Positions 2,194 to 58,552 of a stretch of 64,000 bases of DNA are shown here, piece by piece; the first letter of the stretch is position 1, and the number at the start of each line of letters is the position of its first letter. Both the position numbers and the translations under genes were made by a program. The notes under the pieces are model-generated. The model did not search any database. It worked only from the letters and a program-made list of their open reading frames with translations, and was not told the DNA's origin. The DNA comes from a bacterium (GTDB lineage Bacteria > Patescibacteriota > Patescibacteriia > 2-12-FULL-60-25). The DNA is taken from NCBI GenBank assembly GCA_021796435.1, contig JAJYXM010000016.1:182625-246624 (forward strand), read 5' to 3'.

Positions 2194-2205
2194 CGACCAA
2201 CACAT

Positions 2206-25953: not shown

Positions 25954-28900
25954 ATGAAAGCACGTAGCGGACCATTAAGCAGCGGAGCAGCGAAAGTTGC
26001 CTTGGGAGGGGTATTGTTGGCGATCGTCGTCTTTGGCTGGCTGCCTCGTGAGGCCAAAGCGATCGTCATCGATCAGAACCCGGCAAACCAGGGTCCGGCG
26101 GCTGCAGGCATGGCAAATCTCGAAGCCTGTATTCAGATAGGCAAAGCCATAGACAGCGGTTCGTATAGTCCGACGGGAGGTTTGGTGACAGAGATCAGCG
26201 CAGTCTATAAGAATGATTGTAACTACACCCAGTTGTTGGAGATGAGGCAGGCGGAAATCGCCGGGCAATGGCAATTCGCCATTACGCGTGCCCTTTTAGG
26301 GACGTTGAATAAATTCACGCAGCAGGTCGGTCAAAACCTTGCCAACTGGGTCTTGGAGGGTGCGCACGGCAACCCTACTTTCTATAAGAAGAATTTTTGG
26401 GGCTTCCTTAAGGATGTGGGCCAAGATTTCACCAACAGATTCATAGATGACGTGGATAAACAATGGGGTTTAGGCTTGTGCCAACCGATCAGTTTGAGCA
26501 TGAAGCTGGGTATCCCGTTCGCACCTCTGCCCATAGACGAACCGGATTGTACTTTGGCTGGCGTAAGGAACGCGTTCGAGCAGACCTATAAGCAGCTTAC
26601 GCCGCACGAATTGGCGAATACGTTCATGGACGCTTTGAGGGACGGAAGGAACAATCCTTTGGAGTTCCAGCTGCGTATCAACAGCATGGCGGTCATCGGA
26701 CGCGAGGAGGCCAAGCAAGGAGCGGCACAACAAAGACAGGAGAACGCCGGAATGAACACCATGACCGTAGGTCCGCTGAGTTCTTCGATCAAGACGCCTG
26801 CCTTGATTGTCCAGCAGACGCTAGATGCACAGAATCCCGCCAAATTGATGAATGAAGTCACGCAGGCCCAGATGACTTCATATGCTTGGGAAGCGATGAC
26901 GGCGGGTCTGCAACAGCTGCCACAGATCGCGGGTATGGCTTTTTTGACTACCTTGGCTGAAGGGGCGTTGAACAAACTGTTGAATTATTGGTTCACGGAT
27001 AATTCCGAGGCGACGACGGATGTCTATCAGATAGACTTGACCAACCCCTATGCCCAGCAGAATGCGCAGCCTAAGACAGGCGATGCGACCAAAAAGATAT
27101 TCACTGACATAATCACACCCAACCTCAGAACTTCTGATGAAGTGAATTTCCTGTCGGAGATGACGGTGTGCGCGGATATGCGAGGTTACTGGAACTGCAC
27201 TTTGGATGAGGCTTTGGCGAATGCGTTGTTGGAAGGCGGTACAAATGGCGGTATTACGGTGCTCAAAGCCGCTGGAATGACGAGCGATAATATTGGGGTA
27301 CAGCCAGTCCTGCATAAGGACTGGGAGCTTATACCTATCACTGAAGCTAAAGATAACCAGGATCCGGGTTGTTTCCAGAGGTCATACTGCGCTTCCAACC
27401 TGGCTAAGCTGCGTTTTGCGCGCATCATCCCGATAGGCTGGGAACTGGCGGCCAATTCCCCTTACAACAAAAAAGTGAACGGCAAATATGTGACTCTTGA
27501 GGCGGTGATCCGCGGGTTCAATGATTGTAACGATTCAGGACAGGCTGACGCGACACATCCGTGGTGCCATCTGATCAATCCGAGTTGGGTCTTGACCGCA
27601 GTTCCGTTCAAATGCCAACTGAAAGGTTACGGGCAGATGTTGATGGCTCCTGGGATGAATGCACGTATCCAGGAGTGCACGGATTTGGTCTCATGCCTGC
27701 AACGAGACGATAAAGGCAATTGTCTGGGGGCTTATGGTTACTGCATGGCGGAAAAGACGGTTTGGCGTTTTGGTGGAGATCAGTGCGACGAAAAATACGT
27801 CAGCTGTAGGACATACACTTCGCGCAGCGACGGTCCTCATCAGGGTGATACATTATCCCTCACGCGAAATACGATAGATTACGGGGCATGTAACCAAGAC
27901 AATATCGGGTGCATGTACTATCTGACCACGCCCGACATAAGCACTTCGACAACGGGCAAATGGGTGGATAAAGCAACAGTCATCAAATCAAACGGCGTGG
28001 TCAAAGGCGCGGATATACACCAGACTCCTCGTGTCTACTTCGATTCGAGCGTGGAGTCTTGCGATGCATCGGGTAACGGTTGCACCAAGGTGCTGAAAGT
28101 GGAGCAGGGCAAACCATCATTAAACCTGATCAAGAACAGCTCGTTCGAGAATGATGATGCAAAGAATCCGGGTAAGCTGGATGGTTGGTTCAAGTTCTTG
28201 GATGGTTCGCCATATCAATATACTGCCTTCTTGGCGGATGTGGGGGATTCTAGCCGCACCGGATCGCGCGGTATCGAGGTCACCGGGTCACCTGACTACA
28301 ATACGGCTCCTTTCCAACAGGTCACGATCTATCCGTTGAGGAATTATGTATTGTCGTTCTACGCCAGGACGAATAATTCCGCGGGAACGCATAAAGCTTC
28401 AGTCAGTTTGGTCTTGAACAGAAATTTCGCGCCAGCTTTATCGCAGTCTTCCTTGGTCGCTCAGGTTGCCGGCCAGACGTATTTCAGGAGCAGCGCATGT
28501 TTGTCCAATATCTCAAGCTTAGCCGTAGGTTTCCCGTCTTTCATCAACTCCAACAACACGGTGAGCGCCGGAAGCAGTCAATTGACCGAAGAATGGCAGA
28601 GGTTCACTTGTGAGTTCGTGTCGAATGCTGACGTCACGGGAGGAAGGATTTTTGTGGGTGGAGCAGGAGCAGCCATCGAAGATGTGCAACTGGAAGAGGG
28701 CGACAAGGCTACGGATTATCTCGAGTCATTATCCAGCGGATTGAAGAGCGAATACCTTAAGTTGCCGCCGGAGGTCTATGGATGTATAGGGGACGACAAG
28801 AGCGATCGGGCAGAGTGTAAAAGCTTCGCTCGGATGTGTTCGCAGGCCGATGCGGGTTGTCAGGGATATACGGATTCTTCAGGCGCCGATCCGACGGAAG

Positions 28901-31900
28901 TGCCAGCCATACTGTCGACCGGTGATTATTGTCCCAGTACCTGCGTCGGATACGCGGAATATCTGAAGATGCCGTCAGCTTTTGATCTGGTGAAGACGGG
29001 CGCGGCGAATCCGGCGACCGATCCTTTGACCGATCCGAATGACGACACGACAGCCAATTTCGTTCCGAAATACGCGGCACAGTGCAGTGCTGATCAGGTG
29101 GGTTGTGAAGCGTTCACCAATCTGGAGGCGGCTGCCGGTGGAGGAGAGGATACCGTGTACTTGACCTATGCACGAGCTTGCCAAAAGCCGAATGATGATT
29201 CCACTACGTATTTCACCTGGGAAGGATCGGAGACGACTGGCTATCAATTGCGAACCTGGAGCCTGATCAAGGAGACGAATCAGACTCTGCCGGCACCGAA
29301 TCTCGTGGGTGCACCGAAGATACTGCGCAAAGCCGGACCTGACGGAATCCTCAAGGATCCCGCGGACTGCGATGAGCAGAGCTGGAAAGACGGAGCAGAT
29401 CTGGATTGTCGCCAGATATACGACGAGAACGGACAGGCTTATTACCGCTATTTCTCGCAGACCATAGTCTCGAGCGCGTCATGCGTGGACTACCGCAAGA
29501 ACAACCAGAATGCGGATGACTGCGTGAAGACGGGTGGGGATTATCGCCAAGCCACGAATGATTGCGTGTATCATATACTCGCCAGCGAAAGCAATACGTG
29601 TACAGCGGCGAATGCCGGTTGTCGCGCATACCTTGGTTCGCGTGGCCGTAATACGGCGAACGTATTCTATGAAGCGTTCAAGGATGCGGCCGGCAACGTG
29701 CCGGTGTATACCGCCCAATCTTCAGTGACGCTCAAGGTCTCGACTGAAGCTCTTTTGGTGGGGGATTACTCATTGAAGATCGACAACAGCAACACGAGCC
29801 AAGCGACGGTGGTGAATGTAGATTTCGATGCGACGACGGGTACGCTCTATACGGTCAGTTTCTGGTATAAGACGACGAACGCTACGGCTAAGACCGTGAC
29901 GATAAATTTGGGCCCGACTGCCGTCGGGACGTTCAAGACGTCGAGCGACTGGAAACGTTTCGAGATCGGACCGTTCAGGGCGACAAAAGGCGGAAAGGCG
30001 ACTTTGAGTTGGACCGGCATGCCGAATACATCTTATCTGGATGAGATAAGCATCCAGCGGTTGCAGGACGTGTCGTATGTGGTCAAGGATTCCTGGACCA
30101 TCCCTGTGGAGTGCGATCAGACGCCGGAAGGCATTCCGCAAGCCCAGGCCATGTTGGGTTGTCGTGAATATCGCGATAGGGACGGAAATAGCGTAACCGT
30201 AAGACAATTCTCGAGGTTGTGTAGATACGATCTGATCGGTTGCAAGGCTTTCATCGACACACGCAATAGCGACGATCCGTATTATCAATCCTTTACCCTG
30301 AAAGGGTTGGCCTATCCTCAAACCGCCAAACCGTGGGACACGTTGTATGCCGGAGACGATCAGGTCTATCGTCCAGCCGACAGATTCGTCTACGCCGTGG
30401 ATGATCCGTCTTTCCGTTGTGACCAGAGCCAGATGTCTTGCAGAGCATTCGGTAAACAGAAGTTCGACAATCTGGGTATCCCGACCTCGACATATGAGAC
30501 GGTGTATCTGAAGGACGACATCACGAAATACGTCGATCAAGGCAATGAACCGCAGATGTTGTGCCGACCGAGCGAACTTTTCTGCGATAAATTCGTCAGC
30601 GGTCCTGTCACTTCGTATTTCCGTGCGCCGTTGCAGCATATATGCGAATGGCAAGATAAGGTGGAATTGGAGGCATCCACCAATCCGTCATATCCAAAGG
30701 GACAATATTCCGGATGGTTCGTGAGAGGTTCATCTCCTCCGCAACCATGCTATCCGGAGAAGCTGAGCGGAGGACAGACTTTCCTTGGCGAGTTCTCGGG
30801 TTCTCCGAATTATCGGGGCACGACTTCGGCTTGTCCGGCTGACCAGTCCGAATGTACGGAATTCCGTGATACGAACGACCATTCCGACCAATCGCACCCG
30901 TTAGGTAAACCGTATTTCTTCATCAACAATAATCTATTAGATAAATCCAGCTGCGGCGGCAAAGTCGATCCTTTGTCAGGTTGTGTGTTGTTCCGTGACA
31001 TGAACGATAGCAGTTTGCCGTTCAGCGCAAAGGCGACTTACGCCAAATCGCATGCCGAGGGGGACAGTGCGACTGATGCGGTGAATTGCGTGAGTGATCC
31101 GAATAATCAGTATTGCAAGAAAGCGGGGACATGTACGGATATAAAACTGATCAGTTGCGCCAAGAACAGCAGTGGGAATAACGGCTATGATTGTTCATCC
31201 GATCCGTACGTGGCGCCATGGTTAAAAACAGTGCCCGGTTCGTCCTGTACTAGCGATGCCGATTGTTCTAATGATACTTCCGACGACCATACGAACGGCT
31301 TCATCGCGACCGGCCGCTGTTCGGTGAACGACTCCAACCTGGTGATCAAGGTAAAGCTGGATCGAGACTGCCAGGCTTGGTTGGGCTGTTCGACGCAAGA
31401 GACGGTGTTCGACCCGGCGCAAGGCAAGTATGTGGATTTGTGCACGGCATTGTCTTTATGCGACCAGTTGAGCGGCGCTACCGACAGCCAGTTCTGTAAT
31501 CACTACATTGACCGAAAATCAGATGCCACACAAGCGGTGATGCGACAAGGACAGTTCTTGGATCAGGCGACATATATAGATCGTCCGGTCACGTTCACGG
31601 ATTGGGATTATTCTGGCTATACCCTGCCTAACCATTATCAGATACCGGATATACAAAGCCGCCGCATGGCTTTCGAGCTGATGAATAAACGACTGGGTGA
31701 TTTGCAGCCTGGTTTGACCAAAGAATATCGTGACGTGGCAGCGGTGCCATTCAATAAAGCCAAGACGATCACTGATTTGAAGTTCAGCTATCTTAATTTG
31801 TGCCAAGTCGATCAGACAGGCGTCGTCGGATATTACATACCGAAGGCTTCTGGCAGCCCGGATTATTGTTATGTCGCGATCGACAAGGCCTATTCGCAGT

Positions 31901-34900
31901 TGCTTTTGGCCAACGTCAATGAAAGGAACGTACAGAGCGTATCCACGGCTTTCTCGCAGAATGCGCAGGTAAAGGACGATCCGACCTTGGCGCAAGCTTT
32001 TCCGGGTTCGACTTGTCGTGCATATCCGGATGCAGCTTCGCCATACCCGAATAAGTTCGTGTCCGAGTGGGATTACGTGAAGGATCCGCCGCAACCTACA
32101 CAGTATCTTTCGGGTTTTGAAGGTGTAGCGCTATGCGCATACGGTGAGGACTGCGATTGCAGCTATAGGCGTCTGTCTTATGGCGGAGTGTATAAATACT
32201 ACGCGCCATATAGCGGCGTAACTCCGTCGGGCGTGTGTGTCGGTGGCAGCCGTAACGGCGAATCGTGCACACCGGGCGCTACGGGCGGGCAGGGCGAAAG
32301 CTCAAGCACCACGACATCTTCAGGCAATTCGGAGTATGCCGGTAACGATTGCGGAATGGGAGGAGCCTGCAGCGAGCTGCAGTCAAGCTCCTTGATCCGT
32401 GGCATCTTCGGTAACTGCCTGCAGTATGATTATTCGAGGACGCTGGGTAATACCCAGGATATGCATCCGTGCTTGGTCTGGAGTCCGACACCGGTGCTGC
32501 AAGGCGAGCAGGACGTGTATCATTACCAGCCGACTGCAGGATACCTGCCGCCGATGAATTCAGGCCAGTATTATTGCTTGTCCAGCGCCAAGGAACCAAG
32601 GGTTTTGAAGGCACAGGTGCCGAATCAGTTGACCAATTGGGAGTTCAGTTTCAAAGGTGCGGCTGGAGGCGCTATAACAACGGCGCAGGCGCCACCCGAC
32701 AGGCCGGGTTACATAGTCGCCAAAGCCCCAGGTAAGATGAGTTTCTTCTGGTATCATGAATGTTTCGTACAGGATCCGGCTGCGATTTCAGACAGCAATG
32801 TGCCTTTACCCTTCAGCTTACCTAAGGAAGGTGCGCTGATAGGTTCGGGTGATTATAAGAATTGGTACGAAAATAATTGCGGCTGGGGCGCCACATTGGA
32901 CGGGGCTGCTGTCCGTGGTACGGATAGCGGAGCGGCATGCGGAAGCGTGCGTCAGGGTTTTGGCGCACAGGCATATGCGGAAGATACGCAGGCAGGACGT
33001 TGGGTCACGACAGGACAAGGCAAGAACAAGAATTATGCCGAATATTTCGTCGAGTTCAACGACAAGACTTGGACTGAATGGCTGCTGAATAAAGCCGTTC
33101 CCACTACGGATGAAATCGCAAAAGCCTCACTTGAGAATAATTTCACCTATTTCGACTTCCGCCCGATGTATAAGACGGGTGCCGGAGGGACCTGGTCGTG
33201 CGGCCAGTCCGGTTGGTGGGTGGATGAGTTCCCGACGGAAGGCGGAACGGCAGGAGTGGATAAGGCCGGGAATGAGATCGTGAAGCGTGAATTGGCGGAT
33301 ATGAAACGCCTGACTCCGCAGGGCGCTGGTTTCCTGAAGAACGAAGATGGTTCGCATCTTTTGAGGCTGCCGTGTAAAGACAAGACGCATTCGGATCCAA
33401 CAAACGGTGACGGCTACTGCTATTACAAGTATTGGGAAATGGATTTCCATGCGGATGGCCAGACGAAGTTCCGGAGATTCAACGAATCAATCGGCGGACC
33501 GAGAGAGCTTAAATCGGACGACGTGTTCTATGCAGAAAGCGAAGGCGGAAAACCGTATTTCGCCATCCGTGCCATGTTCGAGGATACTGTTCCGGAAGAT
33601 AACCTGCTTGATGAAGACATGTCGGATCCTTCGGGCAGCCAATTGGCCGGTCCGTTCAAGTTCGTCGGTTGGTGGGTGACGGCTAGTTTCCCTGGAGCTA
33701 CGAATGCGCGATATATCTACATGTATATGGATGTGGGTCACGCCGATATCTGCAAGGAAGTGGGCAGCGTGGCCTCGGATAACGGAGGGGACACTGCAGC
33801 CTTCACGGATCGCGTGTGGGATCAGGGCACATATGCCATACCCAGCTTGGGCTTTAACGTCGGTACGACCAATAATCCATTCGGTGCCGCGAAACATACC
33901 AAGCAGATAGGTGCGGAACCCCTCATCATGTCCGGTACATTGGACAAGACGGCATACAAAGTCGGCGTAAATAAGCCTACATTCCTTTCGTCCGGTGCTG
34001 AATATTTCCGTTTGGGTGATGCGCCAACAGGCAATTGGGCATGGCTAAGCGATATCTTCGCTAAGATATACAAGATATACCGTTGGAACGAACAACCGGT
34101 CACCAAGACGAGCTGGGCTTGCGTCGCAGGACCGAGACAAGGCGAACGTTGTCCGGATTTGACCACGTACTACGATAAGACCAAGAAAGATGCTTTCAAC
34201 AATAACGCGTGCAATCCGTTGTTGGATAAGAGCTGCACGGGTGGTTTCGCGATCTGGGATCAAGGCGCAACTTCTTCGGCTAAATATTGTGGCTATCAGG
34301 GTAATTGCAATCCGGAGCTGATAGACATACGCGATCCGAGCTTGGCTTTCTGTAATTCATTGTCCGGAGTCAATGCTGGCCTGGCTTGCGGGCCGGGTGG
34401 TGGGGTCAATATCGGTCAATATGATGTGTGCCACGCTGGTCCGGTCAAGAGCGTAAACGGCAAACTGACTCCACAGTTCACGTCATGCGGCATGAGCGAT
34501 TATTGGGAGCAACTGGCGGATACGAATCTTTACTCCTTGAAGGACGATGCCTGTGCGGGTTTGACCGGTACTAAATTGACCCAATGTACTGCCGAAATAG
34601 CAGCGATAACGAAGGATTGCACGGATAATAGCTTTACGGATCAGAACGGAAGCCCCTGTAAACATCTGGTCCGTAGCAGCGCGGCACAAGTCGGAGCTTT
34701 CTGGTGCGCGAATGACGGTGTGCTTTTCCCTGACGCAACGCCAGCCTGGTGCCGTAAGCCAAGCGGAGGAAAACCCTCGACGGATTGTCCGGTGCAAGTT
34801 GTCGGAAGCTGTGGATCGAACGGTTACTGTACGAACGAAGGTTACGAACACGTTCGTTGCACATCAGGGGGTGAATGCTCTTTCACATGGAAGAATTGGT

Positions 34901-37050
34901 GGTACAACGATATGAGCAAGCCATCAGGTATGCCAGATAAACCCATGCCGTATCCAGCAAGGCATGCGACATTTGACAACTGGAATGATACGTTGTCGGT
35001 AGCTTTAAAGGATTGGGCCTATGGGGACTACACAACGTGGCCGACGAGCGGTTCAGTGAATGTTAATTATCCATTGGGAGGTCATGCTATCGATAGCGGG
35101 GCATTTACCTTCGGTGTATATCCGAGGTGGATGACTGGAGGTATTAATAATGGTCTCGATGGGTATAAGGGCACTGATGGGCAGGATGCGACCAGGGATA
35201 TAGGTGGTAAGGATTTCGCTTATACCACCGATAGTCCAATCTATACTAGATATTATATTCAGAAGCCGGGTTCAATCGGTGAGGCTGCCTCACGTTTTCC
35301 TGGAACGTATATTATTGCTTCTGTGACTAAGGTAGGTAGTACCAGTATCACCGAAGGTTCGAATAATGTCTTTATACCTGGGCATTGTGAAAGGTTGCCG
35401 GTCGATCCCACCTCCTGTACCGAATATAGTGATATCGGAAATAAAGATACTGACGGTTGTTATGAGGATAAGGGGCCCTATGATGTTCCTTATTTCAGCC
35501 AGACAAACGGAGGTACTAGATGGATTGGTCCGGTAACTAAGCCGGGCATCTGCGAACTTGGCGCCAAAGAAGGCAGCTTCTGTCTGGATAACCAAGACTG
35601 CAAACCGGCCTGGGTGACGGATGACCAACAATGGATCGCTTCATTCATGTGCCAACCTGTCACGAATGTGAGCGGACAGTCGAGCAGCGGTACGTTACCT
35701 GATTACAAGACGGCGACTGGCCCGAGCTTCGATTGCAATGATCTAGAGGGTGATCCGAATTCGACTGATCTCGATAAGGACAACAACTCCTGTACGCATA
35801 AGGCCGGATACCAGCCGCGCGTGGATTTGTGCGGGTTGGATCCGAAACGCACGGAGTGTCTGACAGGCGTGGCGCAACGCGATAATCCGACGAGCGGCGG
35901 TTATATAGCTTCGTATGACGCCAAGAACGGATTGCCTCCAACGGATGTCACGGCTGGATTGCATCTTCCGACTTATCTGGCGGAACAGAACGGACAACCT
36001 CAAGCTGACTACGCATCCGATTTCACTTACATCTCTTACTATGCGCCGAAGCCACCGCGGATAGCTGCGCCGGACACGAATCAGCAATGTGCGGCAGCGG
36101 GTCAGTGTCCGATCGCGGCGGTCGATGCCTTCAACTTGGAGGGGACGACCGAGGGCAAGGTAGCTTACGTGGGCGGGCAGGCTATCGTGACCATGCGTTT
36201 CTACGCCTGGGCGGCGGATAATCAGATGGGTCTGAAGGAAATGACTATCGATTGGGGCGATGGTACGCAGCAGAAGTTGGATGATGTGCGCATGAAGAAC
36301 AAGAAGCCCTTCTGCGGCGTGAGCAAGGAGTGCGAGTTCGTGCCAGGCCTGACCTGCAGTTCGGATAACGATTGTCCGCCAGCGGCTGGCAGGTGTGCCG
36401 ATACGGGAGTATGTAACCGCAAGCCGGAGGTCTCGTGTCACACTGACCAGGATTGCAGGGCCGGTTCGACAGACGATGATACCTGTAATATCCGTGTCGG
36501 ATTCGGATCAAGCAACGATGCATGCGAACAGAACTATTTCGAATTCACGCACGTCTATACCTGTGACAAGACGCAGCAAGCTGACACGACTTACGCCTGT
36601 TTGACCGCGGGGGGACGTTGTTCGAATGACAATACGCGTATTTGTGGAGGCGCCTTCAAATGCATCGCTGGTGACACCTGCATACAGAATATGGCACAAC
36701 CTGGTGGTTGCTTCGACGCGACGAATGCCGCATGTCGATATACGCCACGCATCCTGATCAAGGATAATTGGGGTTGGTGTACTGGAGAGTGTCGAGTGCA
36801 GGATTTGGGTGGCGGTAAGCTTGGCTTGGGCTTCAAAGACGCGGATGGTGTAGCGCGGAACAACATCCTATTGCCGAATGGCGGATGCTATGACGCCAGT
36901 GGAATCTATCTGAATACTAATCCAACATTGCCATTGAATGTCGCGCAGTCGCAAGACAAGACGAACATGTGCAATCCGGATAACAGCGGGTCGTTCTACA
37001 GGCCATGGATCGTGTTCAAAGGCGCGCTACAGTTGGGAGTAGCGCCATAG
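25954..37050 (+). CDS. giant cysteine-rich cell-surface protein (3698 aa) with CBM-like and PKD-like segments
   Basis: Uninterrupted 11.1-kb ORF with an N-terminal signal-anchor (LGGVLLAIVVFGWLP). Two segments resemble galactose-binding-like / CBM4_9 modules (NLIKNSSFENDD...GKLDGWFKF... and ...YSLKIDNSN...WKRFEIGPF...). A PKD-like motif (IDWGDGT) and many paired Cys (about 190) are present. Confidence 0.85.
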   Translation: MKARSGPLSSGAAKVALGGVLLAIVVFGWLPREAKAIVIDQNPANQGPAAAGMANLEACIQIGKAIDSGSYSPTGGLVTEISAVYKNDCNYTQLLEMRQAEIAGQWQFAITRALLGTLNKFTQQVGQNLANWVLEGAHGNPTFYKKNFWGFLKDVGQDFTNRFIDDVDKQWGLGLCQPISLSMKLGIPFAPLPIDEPDCTLAGVRNAFEQTYKQLTPHELANTFMDALRDGRNNPLEFQLRINSMAVIGREEAKQGAAQQRQENAGMNTMTVGPLSSSIKTPALIVQQTLDAQNPAKLMNEVTQAQMTSYAWEAMTAGLQQLPQIAGMAFLTTLAEGALNKLLNYWFTDNSEATTDVYQIDLTNPYAQQNAQPKTGDATKKIFTDIITPNLRTSDEVNFLSEMTVCADMRGYWNCTLDEALANALLEGGTNGGITVLKAAGMTSDNIGVQPVLHKDWELIPITEAKDNQDPGCFQRSYCASNLAKLRFARIIPIGWELAANSPYNKKVNGKYVTLEAVIRGFNDCNDSGQADATHPWCHLINPSWVLTAVPFKCQLKGYGQMLMAPGMNARIQECTDLVSCLQRDDKGNCLGAYGYCMAEKTVWRFGGDQCDEKYVSCRTYTSRSDGPHQGDTLSLTRNTIDYGACNQDNIGCMYYLTTPDISTSTTGKWVDKATVIKSNGVVKGADIHQTPRVYFDSSVESCDASGNGCTKVLKVEQGKPSLNLIKNSSFENDDAKNPGKLDGWFKFLDGSPYQYTAFLADVGDSSRTGSRGIEVTGSPDYNTAPFQQVTIYPLRNYVLSFYARTNNSAGTHKASVSLVLNRNFAPALSQSSLVAQVAGQTYFRSSACLSNISSLAVGFPSFINSNNTVSAGSSQLTEEWQRFTCEFVSNADVTGGRIFVGGAGAAIEDVQLEEGDKATDYLESLSSGLKSEYLKLPPEVYGCIGDDKSDRAECKSFARMCSQADAGCQGYTDSSGADPTEVPAILSTGDYCPSTCVGYAEYLKMPSAFDLVKTGAANPATDPLTDPNDDTTANFVPKYAAQCSADQVGCEAFTNLEAAAGGGEDTVYLTYARACQKPNDDSTTYFTWEGSETTGYQLRTWSLIKETNQTLPAPNLVGAPKILRKAGPDGILKDPADCDEQSWKDGADLDCRQIYDENGQAYYRYFSQTIVSSASCVDYRKNNQNADDCVKTGGDYRQATNDCVYHILASESNTCTAANAGCRAYLGSRGRNTANVFYEAFKDAAGNVPVYTAQSSVTLKVSTEALLVGDYSLKIDNSNTSQATVVNVDFDATTGTLYTVSFWYKTTNATAKTVTINLGPTAVGTFKTSSDWKRFEIGPFRATKGGKATLSWTGMPNTSYLDEISIQRLQDVSYVVKDSWTIPVECDQTPEGIPQAQAMLGCREYRDRDGNSVTVRQFSRLCRYDLIGCKAFIDTRNSDDPYYQSFTLKGLAYPQTAKPWDTLYAGDDQVYRPADRFVYAVDDPSFRCDQSQMSCRAFGKQKFDNLGIPTSTYETVYLKDDITKYVDQGNEPQMLCRPSELFCDKFVSGPVTSYFRAPLQHICEWQDKVELEASTNPSYPKGQYSGWFVRGSSPPQPCYPEKLSGGQTFLGEFSGSPNYRGTTSACPADQSECTEFRDTNDHSDQSHPLGKPYFFINNNLLDKSSCGGKVDPLSGCVLFRDMNDSSLPFSAKATYAKSHAEGDSATDAVNCVSDPNNQYCKKAGTCTDIKLISCAKNSSGNNGYDCSSDPYVAPWLKTVPGSSCTSDADCSNDTSDDHTNGFIATGRCSVNDSNLVIKVKLDRDCQAWLGCSTQETVFDPAQGKYVDLCTALSLCDQLSGATDSQFCNHYIDRKSDATQAVMRQGQFLDQATYIDRPVTFTDWDYSGYTLPNHYQIPDIQSRRMAFELMNKRLGDLQPGLTKEYRDVAAVPFNKAKTITDLKFSYLNLCQVDQTGVVGYYIPKASGSPDYCYVAIDKAYSQLLLANVNERNVQSVSTAFSQNAQVKDDPTLAQAFPGSTCRAYPDAASPYPNKFVSEWDYVKDPPQPTQYLSGFEGVALCAYGEDCDCSYRRLSYGGVYKYYAPYSGVTPSGVCVGGSRNGESCTPGATGGQGESSSTTTSSGNSEYAGNDCGMGGACSELQSSSLIRGIFGNCLQYDYSRTLGNTQDMHPCLVWSPTPVLQGEQDVYHYQPTAGYLPPMNSGQYYCLSSAKEPRVLKAQVPNQLTNWEFSFKGAAGGAITTAQAPPDRPGYIVAKAPGKMSFFWYHECFVQDPAAISDSNVPLPFSLPKEGALIGSGDYKNWYENNCGWGATLDGAAVRGTDSGAACGSVRQGFGAQAYAEDTQAGRWVTTGQGKNKNYAEYFVEFNDKTWTEWLLNKAVPTTDEIAKASLENNFTYFDFRPMYKTGAGGTWSCGQSGWWVDEFPTEGGTAGVDKAGNEIVKRELADMKRLTPQGAGFLKNEDGSHLLRLPCKDKTHSDPTNGDGYCYYKYWEMDFHADGQTKFRRFNESIGGPRELKSDDVFYAESEGGKPYFAIRAMFEDTVPEDNLLDEDMSDPSGSQLAGPFKFVGWWVTASFPGATNARYIYMYMDVGHADICKEVGSVASDNGGDTAAFTDRVWDQGTYAIPSLGFNVGTTNNPFGAAKHTKQIGAEPLIMSGTLDKTAYKVGVNKPTFLSSGAEYFRLGDAPTGNWAWLSDIFAKIYKIYRWNEQPVTKTSWACVAGPRQGERCPDLTTYYDKTKKDAFNNNACNPLLDKSCTGGFAIWDQGATSSAKYCGYQGNCNPELIDIRDPSLAFCNSLSGVNAGLACGPGGGVNIGQYDVCHAGPVKSVNGKLTPQFTSCGMSDYWEQLADTNLYSLKDDACAGLTGTKLTQCTAEIAAITKDCTDNSFTDQNGSPCKHLVRSSAAQVGAFWCANDGVLFPDATPAWCRKPSGGKPSTDCPVQVVGSCGSNGYCTNEGYEHVRCTSGGECSFTWKNWWYNDMSKPSGMPDKPMPYPARHATFDNWNDTLSVALKDWAYGDYTTWPTSGSVNVNYPLGGHAIDSGAFTFGVYPRWMTGGINNGLDGYKGTDGQDATRDIGGKDFAYTTDSPIYTRYYIQKPGSIGEAASRFPGTYIIASVTKVGSTSITEGSNNVFIPGHCERLPVDPTSCTEYSDIGNKDTDGCYEDKGPYDVPYFSQTNGGTRWIGPVTKPGICELGAKEGSFCLDNQDCKPAWVTDDQQWIASFMCQPVTNVSGQSSSGTLPDYKTATGPSFDCNDLEGDPNSTDLDKDNNSCTHKAGYQPRVDLCGLDPKRTECLTGVAQRDNPTSGGYIASYDAKNGLPPTDVTAGLHLPTYLAEQNGQPQADYASDFTYISYYAPKPPRIAAPDTNQQCAAAGQCPIAAVDAFNLEGTTEGKVAYVGGQAIVTMRFYAWAADNQMGLKEMTIDWGDGTQQKLDDVRMKNKKPFCGVSKECEFVPGLTCSSDNDCPPAAGRCADTGVCNRKPEVSCHTDQDCRAGSTDDDTCNIRVGFGSSNDACEQNYFEFTHVYTCDKTQQADTTYACLTAGGRCSNDNTRICGGAFKCIAGDTCIQNMAQPGGCFDATNAACRYTPRILIKDNWGWCTGECRVQDLGGGKLGLGFKDADGVARNNILLPNGGCYDASGIYLNTNPTLPLNVAQSQDKTNMCNPDNSGSFYRPWIVFKGALQLGVAP

Positions 37051-51379: not shown

Positions 51380-51596
51380 GCCCGCACGTCCTACAGCCCT
51401 TCAAGAGGGAGCTTAAAAAAGGAGATAACCCCACGCCACAAGCGTGGTTTCGATATCCTCCCGGACGAAAATCGGACTTCGACAACAGAAGAGTGACTAG
51501 AGACCATATCGGGTTCTACGTAAGTAATTAGACGAAGCTTCGGCTTCGTAGATGAAAACATGATTGATCCCTCCGACCTACCAGGATCGGAGTGGA

Positions 51597-53104
<1,508 letters not shown>

Positions 53105-53358
53105 TAGGGAGAATATTTATCTCGAATTTATTCGGGATTAGATTCCCAGGTCGATTACTTTGCAGCAATGCAAAGAGTCACCCCGGTGTGGTCATAGTCA
53201 CTTTTCTGAATGTCGAAACAAGACATCCGCGTAAGCGGGTGTTTTTGGTATAAAAAAAGTATTTGGTACCTCGTACCGCGTGCTTCGTGGGTGCTGGGAC
53301 GTTGACAGCACAAGCGAAACTGCTATATATGACAGCGAGTTCTTTTGGAGGGCTGAGC

Positions 53359-53655
53359 ATGGAAGACGAGGATCTCTACAGGGCGATCGAATTTTTGGAA
53401 CGCGGACAGGCGCTGGTGACTCCGGCACACGCCGTGATAAAGAAATTCGGTGGCCAGTTGGTGGCCGTGCGTGTGGGTTGTGGCGAGCCTGTAGTCTACG
53501 AGCTCCGTAGCTCGTGGCACGCCGTGGAGTGGATGAACCGTTGGGATATGCGGCTCTGGCCGACGGTCGAGGCTATAACCAAACAGCTGCCGAATGACAT
53601 GGATGAGGTCCATTATGTAATCCGGTTATTGCTCGACCAGCCGACACTCGGCTAG
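53359..53655 (+). CDS. hypothetical small protein (98 aa) immediately downstream of the 16S rRNA
   Basis: ORF in a GC-rich patch. A strong RBS (GGAGGG) lies 6 nt before the ATG at 53359. No family assignment. Confidence 0.35.
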   Translation: MEDEDLYRAIEFLERGQALVTPAHAVIKKFGGQLVAVRVGCGEPVVYELRSSWHAVEWMNRWDMRLWPTVEAITKQLPNDMDEVHYVIRLLLDQPTLG

Positions 53656-53801
53656 GCTCAAGGAGCCCCTGCATCGCTGAGGATACGACCATCGGTCGCT
53701 CCTTGCGGTGCTTTTCGTTTGTTAATAAGAAAGACGCACCGGAAAGACTGGCAGTAACGGGCGTTTTTGTTTTTCGGGTCGGTTGGATATGATGTGGCAG
53801 T

Positions 53802-54959
53802 ATGGATTTTAATAGACCCACAATACGCAAAGAATATGTACCCAAGATGGGTAACCGCTTGGCGGGAGGGGATACGGTACGGACACCAGACAGGGTGCCT
53901 TCGGGAGTCGAGGTTTCTTTGGAGATGGCGCTTAAGGCGTTGCTTGCGCGGGCCGAGAAGGAAAATCCGCATATCGCAAGGCTGTCTTTGCGTCTTCTTT
54001 CCAAGGGGGGAGAGAACATAGTGCTTGAATCCAGTGGTGCGAAGCACAAGGGTACGGTGTATAAGTTCAATTTCTTGAATTCATGGCCGGTCCTGATAGC
54101 GTCGAGCATGGGGCAAGAGGCGTTTGATGCGGCGGTCTCTGCGATGAAGGAGAAACAATCTACGCGAGAAGCCGACAATAAGGAGTTGCGTCAGTATTTC
54201 GGCGACACGGCGGTCATCCCGCAACGGTCTTTCGTCTGGAATGTGCCGGTCAGCTTCGATTTGGCGAAAAGCCTGATGCCAAAGCAGAAACTCCACGCAG
54301 TCGGGGCAGCCGAATCGATACCTGTTTGGGTGACGATGCAGCGCAAGATGGATCTGAGAAGTGATGACGTGCTTTCGGTGACCGGATACTATCCTGAGGA
54401 TCAGTACAACCGGCCGCCGGGCGAAAAGCCTACAATCTCTGACGAAGCCTATGATTTGGCTCACGAGATCCTGATCGGGCACGAACCGTTCGGTACGATG
54501 GACCATGAAAAGATGGATGCGATCGTCGCCATGTACCCTGATCTCGGGACATTAAATATGATGTGCCATGAGAGCCCGGCTTTCAGGGACAGATTGGCTG
54601 ATTTGACGTCACGCTTGATCTCTTATGCCAAGGAGACAGGCAAGGTGCTGGATCTTGCCGGGGATAACAACCTATTGTTGGAGAGGAAAGAAAAAGGGTG
54701 GAAGACCATATTGCTGGATGTGTTGCCAGGCATAGACATAAAATTCGATGATATCCTGCCTGTGTTAGAGAAATACAAGACGGCGGATGGCCCCTCAAGG
54801 ATGCGCTTGGGATATGCCTTGAATGTCTTGAATACGGTCAGGTTCAGTAATGCACTCGCGGAGATAAGCGGAGTCAAGGAACGAATCGCGATCGACGGTT
54901 TGGAGCAAGTCCCGGCAGCTTACTGGCGAGAGAATCTGCCGTCTTTGCTGCAAAGATGA
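53802..54959 (+). CDS. hypothetical protein, paralog 1 of a tandem pair; putative atypical kinase-like fold
   Basis: 385 aa. The ordered motifs resemble protein-kinase-like landmarks: a Gly-rich segment (SKGGENIVLE), an invariant Lys (GTVYKF), DLAGDNN (D-x4-N) and LLD about 20 aa later. Clear colinear similarity to the downstream gene. Confidence 0.55.
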   Translation: MDFNRPTIRKEYVPKMGNRLAGGDTVRTPDRVPSGVEVSLEMALKALLARAEKENPHIARLSLRLLSKGGENIVLESSGAKHKGTVYKFNFLNSWPVLIASSMGQEAFDAAVSAMKEKQSTREADNKELRQYFGDTAVIPQRSFVWNVPVSFDLAKSLMPKQKLHAVGAAESIPVWVTMQRKMDLRSDDVLSVTGYYPEDQYNRPPGEKPTISDEAYDLAHEILIGHEPFGTMDHEKMDAIVAMYPDLGTLNMMCHESPAFRDRLADLTSRLISYAKETGKVLDLAGDNNLLLERKEKGWKTILLDVLPGIDIKFDDILPVLEKYKTADGPSRMRLGYALNVLNTVRFSNALAEISGVKERIAIDGLEQVPAAYWRENLPSLLQR

Positions 54960-54960
54960 T

Positions 54961-56076
54961 ATGGGAAGAATAGAGAAAATGTTCAGAGAGACCAAAGTCG
55001 CGGCGAAAGCCACCTTCAATAGGGCGAAGCGCGGTTTTTCTCCGATCGAACCCGCGATGGCGGCAGCCGTGGATACTGCACTGACGAACCAGAAACATTG
55101 GCCGTATCTGGCGGCGAGAGGCGGGGAGCATCTGGTTTTTTCGTTCGATGATCCACGCTTGCAGGGCATAGTCTATAAGGTGAGCTATTTCGAGAGCTTG
55201 CCGATTTTGAGCGCTTGGTATGAGGGCGAAGATGCCGTTGAACGAAAATTGGAGTCCATGCATGAGGAGATGGACCAGCGTACGGCGAAACTCAAACGGA
55301 TGCGTGAATATTTCGGTTTCAACGCTGTGCCGCCGCAGCGTTTTGTGATCAAAAAATTGCCGGTGACCCATGCGTTGATCATGGCTCTGAAAGCGGAACA
55401 TCTAGTGCAGGGAATGGATTTGCCTAAAGAGCTGCCGGTTTGGGTGTGCGTCCAAAGAAAAATCAAGAAACCTGAAGGGCAGACCTATTCTTTGAACGGA
55501 TATTATCCGGAAAGCAAGAAAAGGCTTGGCAGGTCTTGGAGCAAGGAGGATATCGAGACTTATGACGCAGCGCATGATGTATTGTTCGGTGGTCCGTTGA
55601 GTGGGATGGATCAAGCGTCGCAGGAGCGATGGGTATTGTTGGAATATCCGGAGCTTCTTCCATTGTGGCAGGCGATGATAGGAGATCCGGCCCTCAAGAA
55701 AGAATTGCAGGATGTCGTCAAGAAGCTCATCACTTATACTAAAGAAACTGGTGAGTTGATGGAGTTGGCTGGGGAAGAGAATGCGGTTCTGCTTAAGGAG
55801 AAAGCCGGGTGGCAGGTCAAGTTGTTCGACGCTTTGCCCACGAAGGGCTTAAATCTTGAGAGATTCAGGGAAGTAACGGCGAAGTTAAAGTCCGGTAGGT
55901 CTTTGACGATGCCACAGAGATATGTGGCGATGAATGGTCTGAATACCTTGCGTTTCATCAACGCTTTGGCGCTGATCGCGGAAGTCCCGGAGAGGATGGT
56001 AGAGCCTGATGTATTATCCGTACCAGCTGAGACTTGGCGGCAAGAGATATCTAAAATCTTCAAAGACAAGACATAA
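54961..56076 (+). CDS. hypothetical protein, paralog 2 of the tandem pair; putative (pseudo)kinase-like fold
   Basis: 371 aa, colinear with paralog 1 (GIVYKVSYF, REYFGFNAVPPQRF, LPVWVCVQRK, NGYYPE, YDAAHDVLFG, ELAGEENAVLLKEKAGWQVKLFDALP, LNTLRFINALA). The putative catalytic Asp positions are Glu. Confidence 0.55.
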   Translation: MGRIEKMFRETKVAAKATFNRAKRGFSPIEPAMAAAVDTALTNQKHWPYLAARGGEHLVFSFDDPRLQGIVYKVSYFESLPILSAWYEGEDAVERKLESMHEEMDQRTAKLKRMREYFGFNAVPPQRFVIKKLPVTHALIMALKAEHLVQGMDLPKELPVWVCVQRKIKKPEGQTYSLNGYYPESKKRLGRSWSKEDIETYDAAHDVLFGGPLSGMDQASQERWVLLEYPELLPLWQAMIGDPALKKELQDVVKKLITYTKETGELMELAGEENAVLLKEKAGWQVKLFDALPTKGLNLERFREVTAKLKSGRSLTMPQRYVAMNGLNTLRFINALALIAEVPERMVEPDVLSVPAETWRQEISKIFKDKT

Positions 56077-56139
56077 CAAAACATCCTCTTGCGAGGATGT
56101 CTTGTATGGTGGACGGCAGAGGAGTCGAACCTCTGACCT
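56073..56139. repeat. direct repeat copy A (hairpin plus tRNA-Val 3' portion)
   Basis: ATAACAAAACATCCTCTTGCGAGGATGTCTTGTATGGTGGACGGCAGAGGAGTCGAACCTCTGACCT repeats at 56462-56528 with 2-3 mismatches. Confidence 0.75.
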
Positions 56140-56174
56140 CCCCGGTGTCCACCGGGGCGCTCTAATCAATCATC
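56107..56174 (-). pseudogene. partial duplicate of tRNA-Val (D-loop to CCA end, lacking the 5' acceptor strand)
   Basis: The minus strand reads GATTAGAGCG-CCCCGGTGGACACCGGGG-AGGTCAGAGGTTCGACTCCTCTGCCGTCCACCA. The T-arm and acceptor 3' strand are identical to the intact tRNA-Val. The anticodon-arm region is altered but keeps GAC. No complementary 5' acceptor strand is present. Confidence 0.6.
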
Positions 56175-56180
56175 TTTTTG

Positions 56181-56447
56181 TTAATTCGAATCGATGAAAA
56201 TCTTTTTTTCTTTGATGATTCGTTTAATCAAGCTCCTATCTTTCCAAGATTTAATTCTATATTCTAACCGTCTCGCTTGAAGTAAGGTCTTAGTTTCACG
56301 ATAGAATTCACATGACCATGGTCGTCCCGAGGCTGTGGACTTAGTCATCCCTGTATTGTGTTCGTGTAAGCGTCGGTTTAGATTATCGGTCGATCCGATA
56401 TAAAAGCGATTTCGTGTTTTTGAAAATAAGATGTAACAGTAGGCCAT
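56181..56447 (-). CDS. GIY-YIG nuclease family protein (homing-endonuclease-like)
   Basis: 88 aa with the GIY-YIG core (YCYILFSKTRNRFYIGSTDNLNRRLHEHN...). Lies between the two repeat copies. Confidence 0.85.
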   Translation of the reverse strand: MAYCYILFSKTRNRFYIGSTDNLNRRLHEHNTGMTKSTASGRPWSCEFYRETKTLLQARRLEYRIKSWKDRSLIKRIIKEKKIFIDSN

Positions 56448-56461
56448 GCTCCAGAGCTAAT

Positions 56462-56528
56462 ATAACAAAACATCCTCTTGCGAGGATGTTTTGCATGGTG
56501 GACGGCAGAGGAGTCGAACCTCTGACCT
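56462..56528. repeat. direct repeat copy B (hairpin plus tRNA-Val 3' portion)
   Basis: See copy A. This copy continues into the intact tRNA-Val. Confidence 0.75.
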
Positions 56529-56572
56529 TCACAATGTCAATGTGACGCTCTAACCAACTGAGCTAGCCGTCC
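56496..56572 (-). tRNA. tRNA-Val (anticodon GAC), CCA-encoded
   Basis: The minus strand reads GGACGGCTAGCTCAGTTGGTTAGAGCGTCACATTGACATTGTGAAGGTCAGAGGTTCGACTCCTCTGCCGTCCACCA. Cloverleaf has a 7-bp acceptor, D-arm, anticodon loop TTGACAT and T-loop TTCGACT. Confidence 0.85.
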
Positions 56573-56732
56573 GGACTTAGTCATTTTTAGTGTCTAAAAT
56601 GCGGTGCAAATTTAGCCGAAAAGATGGAATATGTCAAACAGCTCTGGAGACCGTAGGTTGGTGCGTGTGATACTTGTCTCGGGATGTGCTATAATCAAAC
56701 GGACATTAATCATTTCCTAATATCCTCATTTT

Positions 56733-57352: not shown

Positions 57353-58552
57353 TCAGGTGCGCGTGTTCTTCAGCGCTGACATGGTCTGTTTAAGCTTGTC
57401 GATTATCTGATGGCTCGTCGTCACGATATCGCCGCCGGGCGGGAAATCGAGTTCCGCATATTCACGCGTACCTGTCGCGCCGAACGGGCGGGCCAGTTCC
57501 GCGGCGGAAAGCGTGCCATTGGCATGGATCATGGCTTTTCCGGATTCGGAGATCAATACGATGACTTTAGCCTCAGGGGCATAAGAGATGAGTTCTTTGG
57601 CGACTCCGTTCAGGTCGTCCAATCCGGTGCCGGTCTCTACGGCGTCTTGGTTGGTCAGGATGCTCCAGACCAAGCCGAGGTCGCGGTCCTGCTCCAGATG
57701 CGTAAGCGCTTTGCCCCAAAGTTTGAGCGTCGGGACTGTGCGTGTCCGCCAGATGCCATGTACTATCTCTTCGCGGCGCGCTCCGATGGCCAAGAGTTCG
57801 GAAGCCTTACCAAGGGTCAGGGGGGTCACGTTGGACGAGCGGAAAGATTGGGTGCGATAGATCATGCCGCTCAAAAGCGCGGTCGCGACGTCTTCATCTA
57901 TCAGGTTCTTGTTCCATTCCTTGAACAGGTCGAAGAGTATCTCCGTGCTGGACGACGCATTCAGGTCCACGAGATTGATTTGGCCCCAGTGTTCGTTCGC
58001 GGGATTGCAGTCGATGTTTATGATCGGTAGACGATAGATGAAATCTGCGTGGTCGCGGAAGAGCGCACCAAGCGAATGGATATCCGGGCAGTCCAGCGCG
58101 ATGATGAGGTCGAAACGGTCTTCGCCATGGCGGAAGCTTACGTCGCGCGGGGACCACTCTCCGGCTTTGGGTATAAGCGTGACGGTGAGTTGGCCGTCCT
58201 TCACGTCATAGTGCAATTCCTCGAGAGGGTTATGCGAAACGTCTAAAGATATCTCAAAAGCCCTTACTGCGCCCAGGGTGTCTTTCGTCTTATCCAGGCC
58301 CGGTAAGAAGTGCGGTTTGTTTTCCGTAGTCAGTCCCTTGGCCACCGTTTCGTATTGTTTGTTAAGTTTGGCCAAAAACAGCCCTAATGCGGCTGCGGCA
58401 GACAAACTGTCCGTTGTCCATGGCTCTTGGGTGACGATGAGGGTCCGTTTAGAGCGGGAAATCGCCTCAATCACTTGTCTTTTTACTTCGAAACCCATGT
58501 TCAGATAGATTAGATGATTGGCTAGCTTACATTTTGTTCGGCATAAGGTCAA
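57353..58552 (-). CDS. DHH/DHHA1-like protein with degenerate catalytic motifs (NrnA-like pseudo-phosphoesterase)
   Basis: Colinear with DHH phosphoesterases, but the DHH position reads IDCNPANE and no GGGH motif is present. The start is probably at MGFEVK (58498). Confidence 0.55.
   Translation of the reverse strand: MTLCRTKCKLANHLIYLNMGFEVKRQVIEAISRSKRTLIVTQEPWTTDSLSAAAALGLFLAKLNKQYETVAKGLTTENKPHFLPGLDKTKDTLGAVRAFEISLDVSHNPLEELHYDVKDGQLTVTLIPKAGEWSPRDVSFRHGEDRFDLIIALDCPDIHSLGALFRDHADFIYRLPIINIDCNPANEHWGQINLVDLNASSSTEILFDLFKEWNKNLIDEDVATALLSGMIYRTQSFRSSNVTPLTLGKASELLAIGARREEIVHGIWRTRTVPTLKLWGKALTHLEQDRDLGLVWSILTNQDAVETGTGLDDLNGVAKELISYAPEAKVIVLISESGKAMIHANGTLSAAELARPFGATGTREYAELDFPPGGDIVTTSHQIIDKLKQTMSALKNTRT

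Follow-up and report, generated by a model that had tools for sequence, protein, structure and literature searches.

A probable atypical protein-kinase-like family in Patescibacteria, represented by a tandem gene pair downstream of a stand-alone 16S rRNA gene

What is encoded by two similar, adjacent genes that lie downstream of a 16S rRNA gene on a Patescibacteria contig, and why are they located there? The genes are present in a stretch of 64,000 nucleotides (nt), hereafter the window, of contig JAJYXM010000016.1 (GenBank assembly GCA_021796435.1, forward strand, positions 182,625 to 246,624), and the positions given below are those of the window. The original prediction, made from the sequence of the window alone, described an open reading frame (ORF) of 98 amino acids (aa) followed by two colinear paralogs, noted in the latter an order of motifs resembling that of protein kinases, and regarded the surroundings as an accessory island. 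A large part of bacterial diversity belongs to Patescibacteria (the Candidate Phyla Radiation, CPR), and to many of their proteins no function has been assigned. Our analyses indicate that the pair probably belongs to a family of atypical protein-kinase-like (PKL) proteins that lacks annotation and is nearly confined to Patescibacteria.

The 98-aa ORF and the two paralogs are present as described, and genes of 98, 385 and 371 aa were called identically on an independent assembly (a Logan contig):

53359 to 53655, plus strand: orf98, 98 aa, gene call on the Logan contig, no family match
53802 to 54959, plus strand: paralog 1 (P0001), 385 aa, predicted atypical protein-kinase-like protein with an Asp-type loop, LDLAGDNN
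54961 to 56076, plus strand: paralog 2 (P0002), 371 aa, same family, with a Glu-type loop, MELAGEEN

The gap between the two paralogs is a single base. Their identity, estimated earlier at roughly 30%, was 31% over 369 columns in a BLASTP alignment (E 9e-56). Neither of them gave a match in Pfam, NCBIfam, PHROGs, PADLOC or the sequences of the PDB, whether phmmer or profiles were used. An exhaustive HMMER search of 1.84 billion cluster representatives with a two-sequence profile retrieved 408 representatives at E <= 1e-3, of which 57 reached E <= 1e-30, and a second search with a 7-sequence profile yielded 69 homologs, none of which has a precomputed Pfam domain. The homologs that are named in their source are all called "hypothetical protein", and nearly all come from Patescibacteria. 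In a word-indexed homolog search paralog 1 matched itself only, and a 121-sequence profile matched two proteins only. No relatives of the family were found in viral contigs, and no description of it turned up in literature searches. The lack of a match to any curated family, together with the uniform naming of the homologs as hypothetical, supports the view that the family is an uncharacterised one.

The genome and metagenome contigs that carry relatives (loci designated L002 to L027 below) are labelled Patescibacteria group, Candidatus Uhrbacteria or Paceibacterota, and the 16S rRNA genes of these relatives are 89-95% identical to that of the window. The window is therefore assigned to a CPR bacterium akin to Uhrbacteria; the kinase-like protein also occurs on a contig of 1.52 Mb. 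L003 (DATMXG010000125.1), labelled Candidatus Methylomirabilis sp., has a 16S gene that is 89% identical to the one in the window and shows the same gene order, and L004 (CAYIQM010000029.1), labelled uncultured Gammaproteobacteria, carries a gene of the family; both are probably mis-binned Patescibacteria contigs. A comparison of the L002 and L009 orthologs gave a ratio of nonsynonymous to synonymous substitution rates (dN/dS) of 0.18, and the kinase-like gene is therefore under purifying selection.

The kinase-like reading is supported by confident AlphaFold2 (AF2) models and by conserved residues of the kind that bind ATP and metal. The model of paralog 1, based on a 121-sequence alignment, has a mean predicted local distance difference test score (pLDDT) of 90.8 and a predicted template modelling score (pTM) of 0.89, and that of paralog 2, based on a 119-sequence alignment, has a pLDDT of 92.6 and a pTM of 0.90. 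Both show what defines the PKL superfamily, namely a bilobal fold with a beta-rich N-lobe plus a helix, a hinge, a catalytic loop, and a strand pair with a metal-binding Asp. From the N- to the C-terminus, a disordered or helical tail is followed by a small N-lobe, in which the Gly-rich loop GGE[HN]xV and the beta3 lysine (VxK) are located, and then by a very long alphaC-like helix and a hinge strand that ends in a nearly invariant Gln (Q180). An insert of about 80 helical residues leads to the catalytic loop [D/E]-L-A-G-x-x-N, after which come two short strands with an invariant Asp (LxD) at their end. Helices make up the C-lobe, which is specific to the family and carries R347 and N350. The conservation of the main positions among 121 homologs, in the numbering of paralog 1, is as follows:

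G69, Gly-rich loop: 100%
G70, Gly-rich loop: 80%
K88, beta3 Lys in VxK: 99%
Q180, end of the hinge strand: 99%
E199, no role assigned: 95%
D284, acidic residue of the catalytic loop: 93%
G287, no role assigned: 98%
N290, catalytic-loop Asn: 100% (121/121)
W300, no role assigned: 94%
D306, putative metal-binding Asp: 100% (121/121)
R347, long C-terminal helix: 95%
N350, long C-terminal helix: 100%
A353, long C-terminal helix: 96%

Conservation of the putative catalytic residues had been proposed as a check of the kinase-like reading, and K88, N290 and D306 proved to be invariant or nearly so. The order of motifs also stood: the Gly-rich loop (KGGENIV or RGGEHLV) and the beta3 Lys, within VYK, are present in both paralogs, and the catalytic-loop Asn is followed 16 residues on by the Asp of L[LF]D. 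The D-x4-N spacing did not stand, because it depends on N289, which is variable; the conserved spacing is D284-x5-N290. The acidic loop residue thus lies six positions before N290 and is not preceded by a His or Arg; it is Asp in 93% of the homologs, Glu in 4/121 and Ala in 5/121. In the model of paralog 1, N290 is located directly before the strand pair 291-296/299-304 and D306 directly after it, which corresponds to the placement of N171 and D184 in PKA. On the basis of these models the assignment of a kinase-like fold is robust, yet the family is remote from every solved kinase: the best structural matches, to Bud32 and RIO kinases, are weak, and Foldseek gave no match to the PDB at E <= 1e-3. 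Taking fold and residues together, we infer that the paralogs are probably Mg-ATP-binding phosphotransferases or ATPases.

Several observations weigh against this interpretation. Firstly, the PDB searches did not connect the family with any solved kinase, by sequence or by profile, and E. coli YrbL, a bacterial kinase-like protein, aligned to the family profile with an hhalign probability of 1.4%. Secondly, a conserved alphaC Glu is lacking, as Glu reaches at most 33% of the members at any position of helix 105-133; E199 might substitute for it. Thirdly, the Asp that would act as catalytic base is replaced by Ala in five and by Glu in four of the 121 members, and therefore not every member may transfer phosphate to a hydroxyl; a role as ATPase or scaffold is also possible. 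Furthermore, R347 and N350 are assumed to lie close to the active site, the loci compared contain no conserved operon partner that points to a substrate, and the neighbour-joining (NJ) tree of the family is star-like and carries no support values. An observation of a different kind concerns the variable, low-confidence N-terminal tail, where several orthologs share a short N-P-F motif (alignment A3, columns 60-100) that is absent from both window paralogs.

The next question is whether the pair can be placed in a kinase family that is already known. Bud32/PRPK of the KEOPS complex and the RIO proteins (Rio1, Rio2, RIOK3) are minimal atypical kinases or ATPases of archaea and eukaryotes. The window proteins gave no Pfam match to RIO1 (PF01163) at E <= 1, this family is absent among those matched by the 121 homologs, and no PDB sequence match to Rio1 or Rio2 was obtained. 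The sole trace of Bud32 at the sequence level is a 23-residue match to 4ww5_A with an E of 1.2. Bud32 and RIO have D-x4-N where the family of the paralogs has [D/E]-x5-N, and the latter differs from them also by the lack of a conserved alphaC Glu, by the extra insert of about 80 helical residues and by its family-specific helical C-lobe, so that only about 170 of 385 residues align. As to a Kae1/TsaD partner, none of the adjacent ORFs examined was recognised as tsaD; tsaC is located 5 kb upstream.

Among Pfam families, only YrbL-PhoP_reg (PF10707) recurred, with matches to 10 of the 121 homologs and a best E of 0.0019, which is below the reliable threshold, and the window proteins did not match it at E <= 1; moreover, YrbL is 210 aa long and members of the present family 330-400 aa. 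The secreted type III secretion system (T3SS) effectors OspG and NleH of enterobacteria have about 160-200 aa and show no sequence similarity to the family, which is twice as long and Patescibacterial, and a reading of the sequences revealed no secretion signal. Hanks-type Ser/Thr kinases (PF00069) gave no Pfam match, and no activation segment ending in APE is present. Similarly, there was no Pfam or PADLOC match to HipA-type toxin kinases, and orf98 is not a conserved small partner, given that it occurs in L002/L013 and L009 only.

Aminoglycoside phosphotransferases (APH, PF01636) and other small-molecule kinases deserve separate mention. On the one hand, no Pfam match to them was found, the locus offers no resistance context, and the Brenner motif HxDxxxxN of APH differs from L-[DE]-L-A-G-x-x-N in spacing and by its His, which is absent here. 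On the other hand, the AF2 models of both paralogs are all-helical after the metal-binding Asp and have no predicted activation segment (in paralog 1, D306 is followed by helices 315-324 and 333-356). In addition, the neighbours of distant members include a cytidylyltransferase, a nucleotidyltransferase and, at gaps of 4 and 5 nt respectively, Ddl and a histidine phosphatase. It is therefore conceivable, though we think it unlikely, that the pair acts on small molecules in the manner of APH, choline kinases or sugar kinases, in which case the helical C-lobe would form a pocket for a metabolite, a cell-wall precursor or an antibiotic.

Membership at the family level thus failed for RIO1, Bud32, YrbL, APH, Hanks-type kinases and HipA, while at the level of the fold the proteins are PKL proteins. 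The pair is best described as belonging to a new, divergent PKL family centred on Patescibacteria. Structure prediction now routinely reveals new kinase-like families (bioRxiv 10.64898/2026.09.18.752743), and as long as a substrate is lacking the assignment is useful rather than surprising. It provides a fold for a family of about 400 clusters that is missed by the profile libraries searched, together with an active site that can be tested (K88, D/E284, N290, D306, R347, N350). If active, the family would constitute a divergent kinase-like branch with D-x5-N, without an alphaC Glu, and with a new helical substrate lobe.

How do the two copies differ? The loop reads LDLAGDNN in paralog 1 and MELAGEEN in paralog 2, and on account of Glu at the first two acidic positions the latter had been proposed to be a pseudokinase or to have altered specificity. 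The first Glu is a real difference, as it replaces the Asp that is 93% conserved; the second falls at a position, D288, without any conservation. Glu-type members number four among the 121: P0002 in the window, P0005 (first copy of L011), P0008 (first copy of L006) and P0142. In the three cases of known context, the Glu-type copy (LELAG or MELAG) is located at:

window, 54961 to 56076
L011, 4860 to 5963
L006, 486 to 1652

In all three a tandem Asp-type copy accompanies it, and single-copy loci carry Asp-type genes. The pseudokinase label is not justified, since the beta3 Lys, the catalytic-loop Asn and the metal-binding Asp, besides the Gly-rich loop, are intact in paralog 2. A catalytically dead paralog 2, or even a dead pair, that serves as a pseudokinase or scaffold and binds only a nucleotide or a partner is unlikely in our view. 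Such a role would agree with the loss of the catalytic-loop Asp to Glu, with the Ala found there in five distant members, with the lack of an alphaC Glu in the family, and with the constant company of an Asp-type copy. Besides the intact residues, however, it should be noted that Glu can still serve as a base, and that the single-copy orthologs of the relatives are slightly closer to paralog 2 (33-40%) than to paralog 1 (30-36%). The Glu pattern fits a specialised partner paralog, and the pairing of a Glu-type with an Asp-type copy suggests a division of labour or a heteromer. If active, such a tandem would be a simple bacterial case for kinase/pseudokinase pairing.

The star-like NJ tree groups paralog 2 with the first copies of L011 and L006, paralog 1 with L002, L009 and P0007, and the second copy of L011 with P0017, which resembles the second copy of L006. 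This suggests that at least three old paralog clades have been gained and lost at one locus, and not that the pair arose by recent duplication.

The position of the pair beside the 16S rRNA gene raises the question of whether the two are functionally or transcriptionally connected. The features of the 16S region are the following:

51486 to 51499, plus strand: 5' arm of the 16S flanking stem (candidate precursor-processing stem), 14 nt, 93% complementary to 53195-53208
51598 to 53103, plus strand: complete, unlinked 16S rRNA gene (Rfam RF00177, 1429 bits, model positions 1-1533)
53195 to 53208, plus strand: 3' arm of the same stem, conserved as a box among relatives (inverted repeat I4)
53220 to 53247, plus strand: intrinsic-terminator-like hairpin and U run, putative end of the 16S transcription unit, minimum free energy (MFE) -15.9 kcal/mol
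53302 to 53329, plus strand: promoter-like TTGACA-N16-(TG)nTATATA, 30 nt 5' of the orf98 start, recognised by eye and tentative

As originally stated, the 16S gene is not followed by a spacer with tRNA genes and a 23S gene. Rfam models gave no large-subunit (LSU) rRNA match in the 10.9 kb downstream of the 16S gene, and neither an LSU nor a 5S match anywhere in the window. Without a 23S gene at the usual spacer distance, and with a flanking stem and a terminator of its own, the 16S gene stands alone. Unlinked rRNA genes are typical of Patescibacteria (Brewer et al., bioRxiv 10.1101/705046), and the window does not differ in this respect; its unlinked 16S gene is an already-known trait of the group. 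The box GTCACTTTTCTGA, which is the 3' arm of the stem, is kept in the 16S trailers of seven relatives. The terminator hairpin has a z-score of -4.07, and 0/200 shuffled sequences fold equally well; in relatives, a hairpin with a T run is located at the equivalent site of the 16S trailer and its stem sequence differs, which amounts to covariation. The promoter-like site was not listed by the consensus scan, because the last base of its -10 hexamer is not T. Because of the flanking stem, the conserved, covarying terminator and the promoter-like site before orf98, it is unlikely, as far as can be judged from sequence, that the downstream genes share a transcript with the 16S gene.

At L010 (positions 1-1163) the 16S gene contains an insertion of about 830 nt, which falls between nucleotides 1378 and 1379 in the numbering of the window 16S gene (window coordinates 52975/52976), and an ORF runs antisense through it. 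Insertions in CPR rRNA genes have been described.

On the other side of the pair, three features lie close together:

56076 to 56105, no strand: palindromic hairpin separating paralog 2 from the GIY-YIG gene that converges on it, candidate bidirectional terminator, 13 pairs, MFE -17 kcal/mol, z-score -4.02
56181 to 56447, minus strand: stand-alone GIY-YIG gene, 88 aa, low GC, apparent window-specific insert (PF01541, E 7e-16)
56496 to 56572, minus strand: tRNA-Val(GAC), found by ARAGORN and Rfam

The GIY-YIG gene had been named from sequence alone, and its PF01541 score of 58.7 bits is well above the gathering cut-off of 22.6. According to ARAGORN and Rfam, tRNA-Val(GAC) is the sole tRNA gene in the window.

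The original prediction took the tandem pair, the adjoining rRNA gene and the GIY-YIG/tRNA insertion as marks of an accessory island. However, tblastn searches with the window proteins showed a conserved order of ksgA, 16S, one or more kinase-like genes, tRNA-Val, a gene for a 190-aa protein, a gene for a DHH-family protein, and the gene for valyl-tRNA synthetase (ValRS). This order is found in L002/L013, L005, L007 and L011, and in part in L003, L009, L012 and L015. A second clade, L020-L023, keeps the overall order; there, genes for a malic enzyme, peptidases and HU, along with genes on the opposite strand, separate the 16S gene from the kinase-like one, and the tRNA that follows is tRNA-Val(CAC). 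In total, tRNA-Val is located 3' of the family gene at 12 loci (the window, L002, L003, L005, L007, L009, L011, L015 and L020-L023), and the 16S gene is present 0.1-4 kb upstream on the same strand in every relative with enough upstream sequence. Because the block from 16S to ValRS is syntenic in relatives, the island claim does not hold, and the tRNA does not mark an insertion since it belongs to the conserved order; only the GIY-YIG gene looks inserted. The GC fraction of that gene is 0.375, as compared with 0.533 for the window, and it is window-specific filling that has no counterpart at the equivalent position in L002, L005, L007 or L011. The position of the pair beside 16S and tRNA-Val is the ancestral gene order in this Uhrbacteria-like lineage.

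It follows from these data that a mobile or accessory cassette, such as a toxin-antitoxin or defence unit in which a HipA-like kinase toxin has orf98 as its partner, is extremely improbable; this explanation is largely refuted by synteny. It had some appeal in view of the low-GC GIY-YIG gene and the tRNA directly downstream, the presence of HipA among the weak Foldseek matches, and the variable filling between 16S and tRNA-Val, which comprises orf98, a methyltransferase, a cytidylyltransferase and a bactofilin. Nevertheless, the kinase-like gene keeps its position in all relatives under purifying selection, the GC fraction of the kinase-like genes (0.50-0.52) is near the window mean, no PADLOC, PHROG or viral-contig matches were obtained, and neither a recombinase nor direct repeats were seen at the locus. 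Likewise, orf98, which has no match in Pfam, NCBIfam, PHROGs, PADLOC or the PDB, has homologs (41-47% identity) at the equivalent position only in the two closest lineages, L002/L013 and L009. The GC-rich patch in which it had been placed is marginal, with a GC fraction of 0.572 for orf98. Toxin-antitoxin, defence-island and mobile-element readings were accordingly rejected on synteny, GC content and the lack of matches. Thus, the unlinked 16S gene with its adjoining genes represents the normal inherited order in the group and not the sign of an island.

Some further observations were made on the filling. A 377-aa ORF after the kinase-like gene of L002 was considered as a hidden third paralog and rejected, as it encodes an unrelated bactofilin-domain protein. 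L015 has a weakly similar GIY-YIG gene near tRNA-Val. In the window, the region 56077-56732, from paralog 2 to the 190-aa gene, is low in GC (0.43). In one clade, an HU (Bac_DNA_binding) gene is located directly 5' of the kinase-like gene at 5/5 loci (L014, L020-L023).

An inherited position could still be a functional one. The neighbourhood is rich in translation genes and the best structural matches are Bud32 and RIO kinases, and a role at the ribosome or on tRNA is therefore attractive. According to this hypothesis, the proteins would be translation-apparatus ATPases of a RIO/Bud32-like kind that act on the maturing 30S subunit, tRNA-Val or ValRS, and hence a bacterial analogue of RIO, and the place kept beside the 16S gene and tRNA-Val would be due to that function. 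The constant 16S gene upstream, the tRNA-Val directly downstream at 12 loci, the presence of ksgA, tsaC, prfB and valS in the neighbourhood, and a tRNA gene within about 600 nt in four more distant contexts would all agree with it. However, the 16S-linked loci all belong to one lineage, as judged from their 16S identities, so that the linkage can be plain inheritance. Furthermore, a flanking stem and a covarying terminator set the 16S gene apart from the genes that follow it, the loci L020-L023 have opposite-strand genes, a malic enzyme and HU in between, the intervening genes differ between loci, and distant members are present in unrelated contexts. We therefore consider the hypothesis quite improbable. 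Its most specific form, in which a Patescibacteria-specific counterpart of RIO/Bud32 works in late 30S maturation or on tRNA-Val/ValRS, with the Asp-type and Glu-type copies as an active/regulatory heteromer, is slightly more improbable again. If this form of the hypothesis were true, a kinase-fold assembly or quality-control factor, so far seen only in archaea and eukaryotes, would operate in bacteria with reduced sets of ribosome-assembly factors.

Returning to the pair as atypical PKL proteins, the way in which they most likely work can be outlined as follows. Lys88, Asn290 and Asp306 would bind Mg-ATP, and either the helical C-lobe would hold a cytoplasmic substrate that receives the gamma-phosphate, or ATP would be hydrolysed. 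The two genes, with their 1-nt gap and possibly together with orf98, would form an operon of their own that starts after the 16S terminator. Paralog 2, as a member of the Glu-type clade beside an Asp-type copy, may share the labour with paralog 1 or form a heteromer with it.

The more distant members of the family have diverse neighbours. Ddl is the neighbour, at a 4-nt gap, in L016 and L017, a peptide-binding protein and DsbA in L008 and L018, a Ser hydrolase and an AAA_33 kinase in L024, DUF4015 in L025, and the histidine phosphatase, at a 5-nt gap, in L027; the cytidylyltransferase and the nucleotidyltransferase mentioned above are also among them. In L026 (positions 673-5017; Chloroflexi bacterium TSY, JAHBNG010000047.1), the distant member overlaps the end of a 601-aa gene of unknown function and is located between a radical-SAM gene and a gene for a Nif11-type precursor peptide, in what looks like a cluster for a ribosomally synthesised and post-translationally modified peptide (RiPP). 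This context hints that some family members may modify peptides. The sole informative domain fusion among the long homologs checked is P0118 (705 aa), in which the kinase-like region is followed by a ChaN/Tiki-like domain at the C-terminus (PF04187, E 9e-13). In unrelated contexts (L004, L008, L016-L018), a tRNA-Leu or tRNA-Ala gene is located about 50-600 nt from the family gene, so that the tRNAs near it across contexts are Val, Leu and two kinds of Ala; by a rough, post hoc estimate, this nearness may exceed chance.

Elsewhere in the window, the DHH-family gene (57353-58552) has a second copy at 17548-18510 that is 30% identical to it, and a single ORF of 3698 aa extends from 25954 to 37050 on the plus strand.

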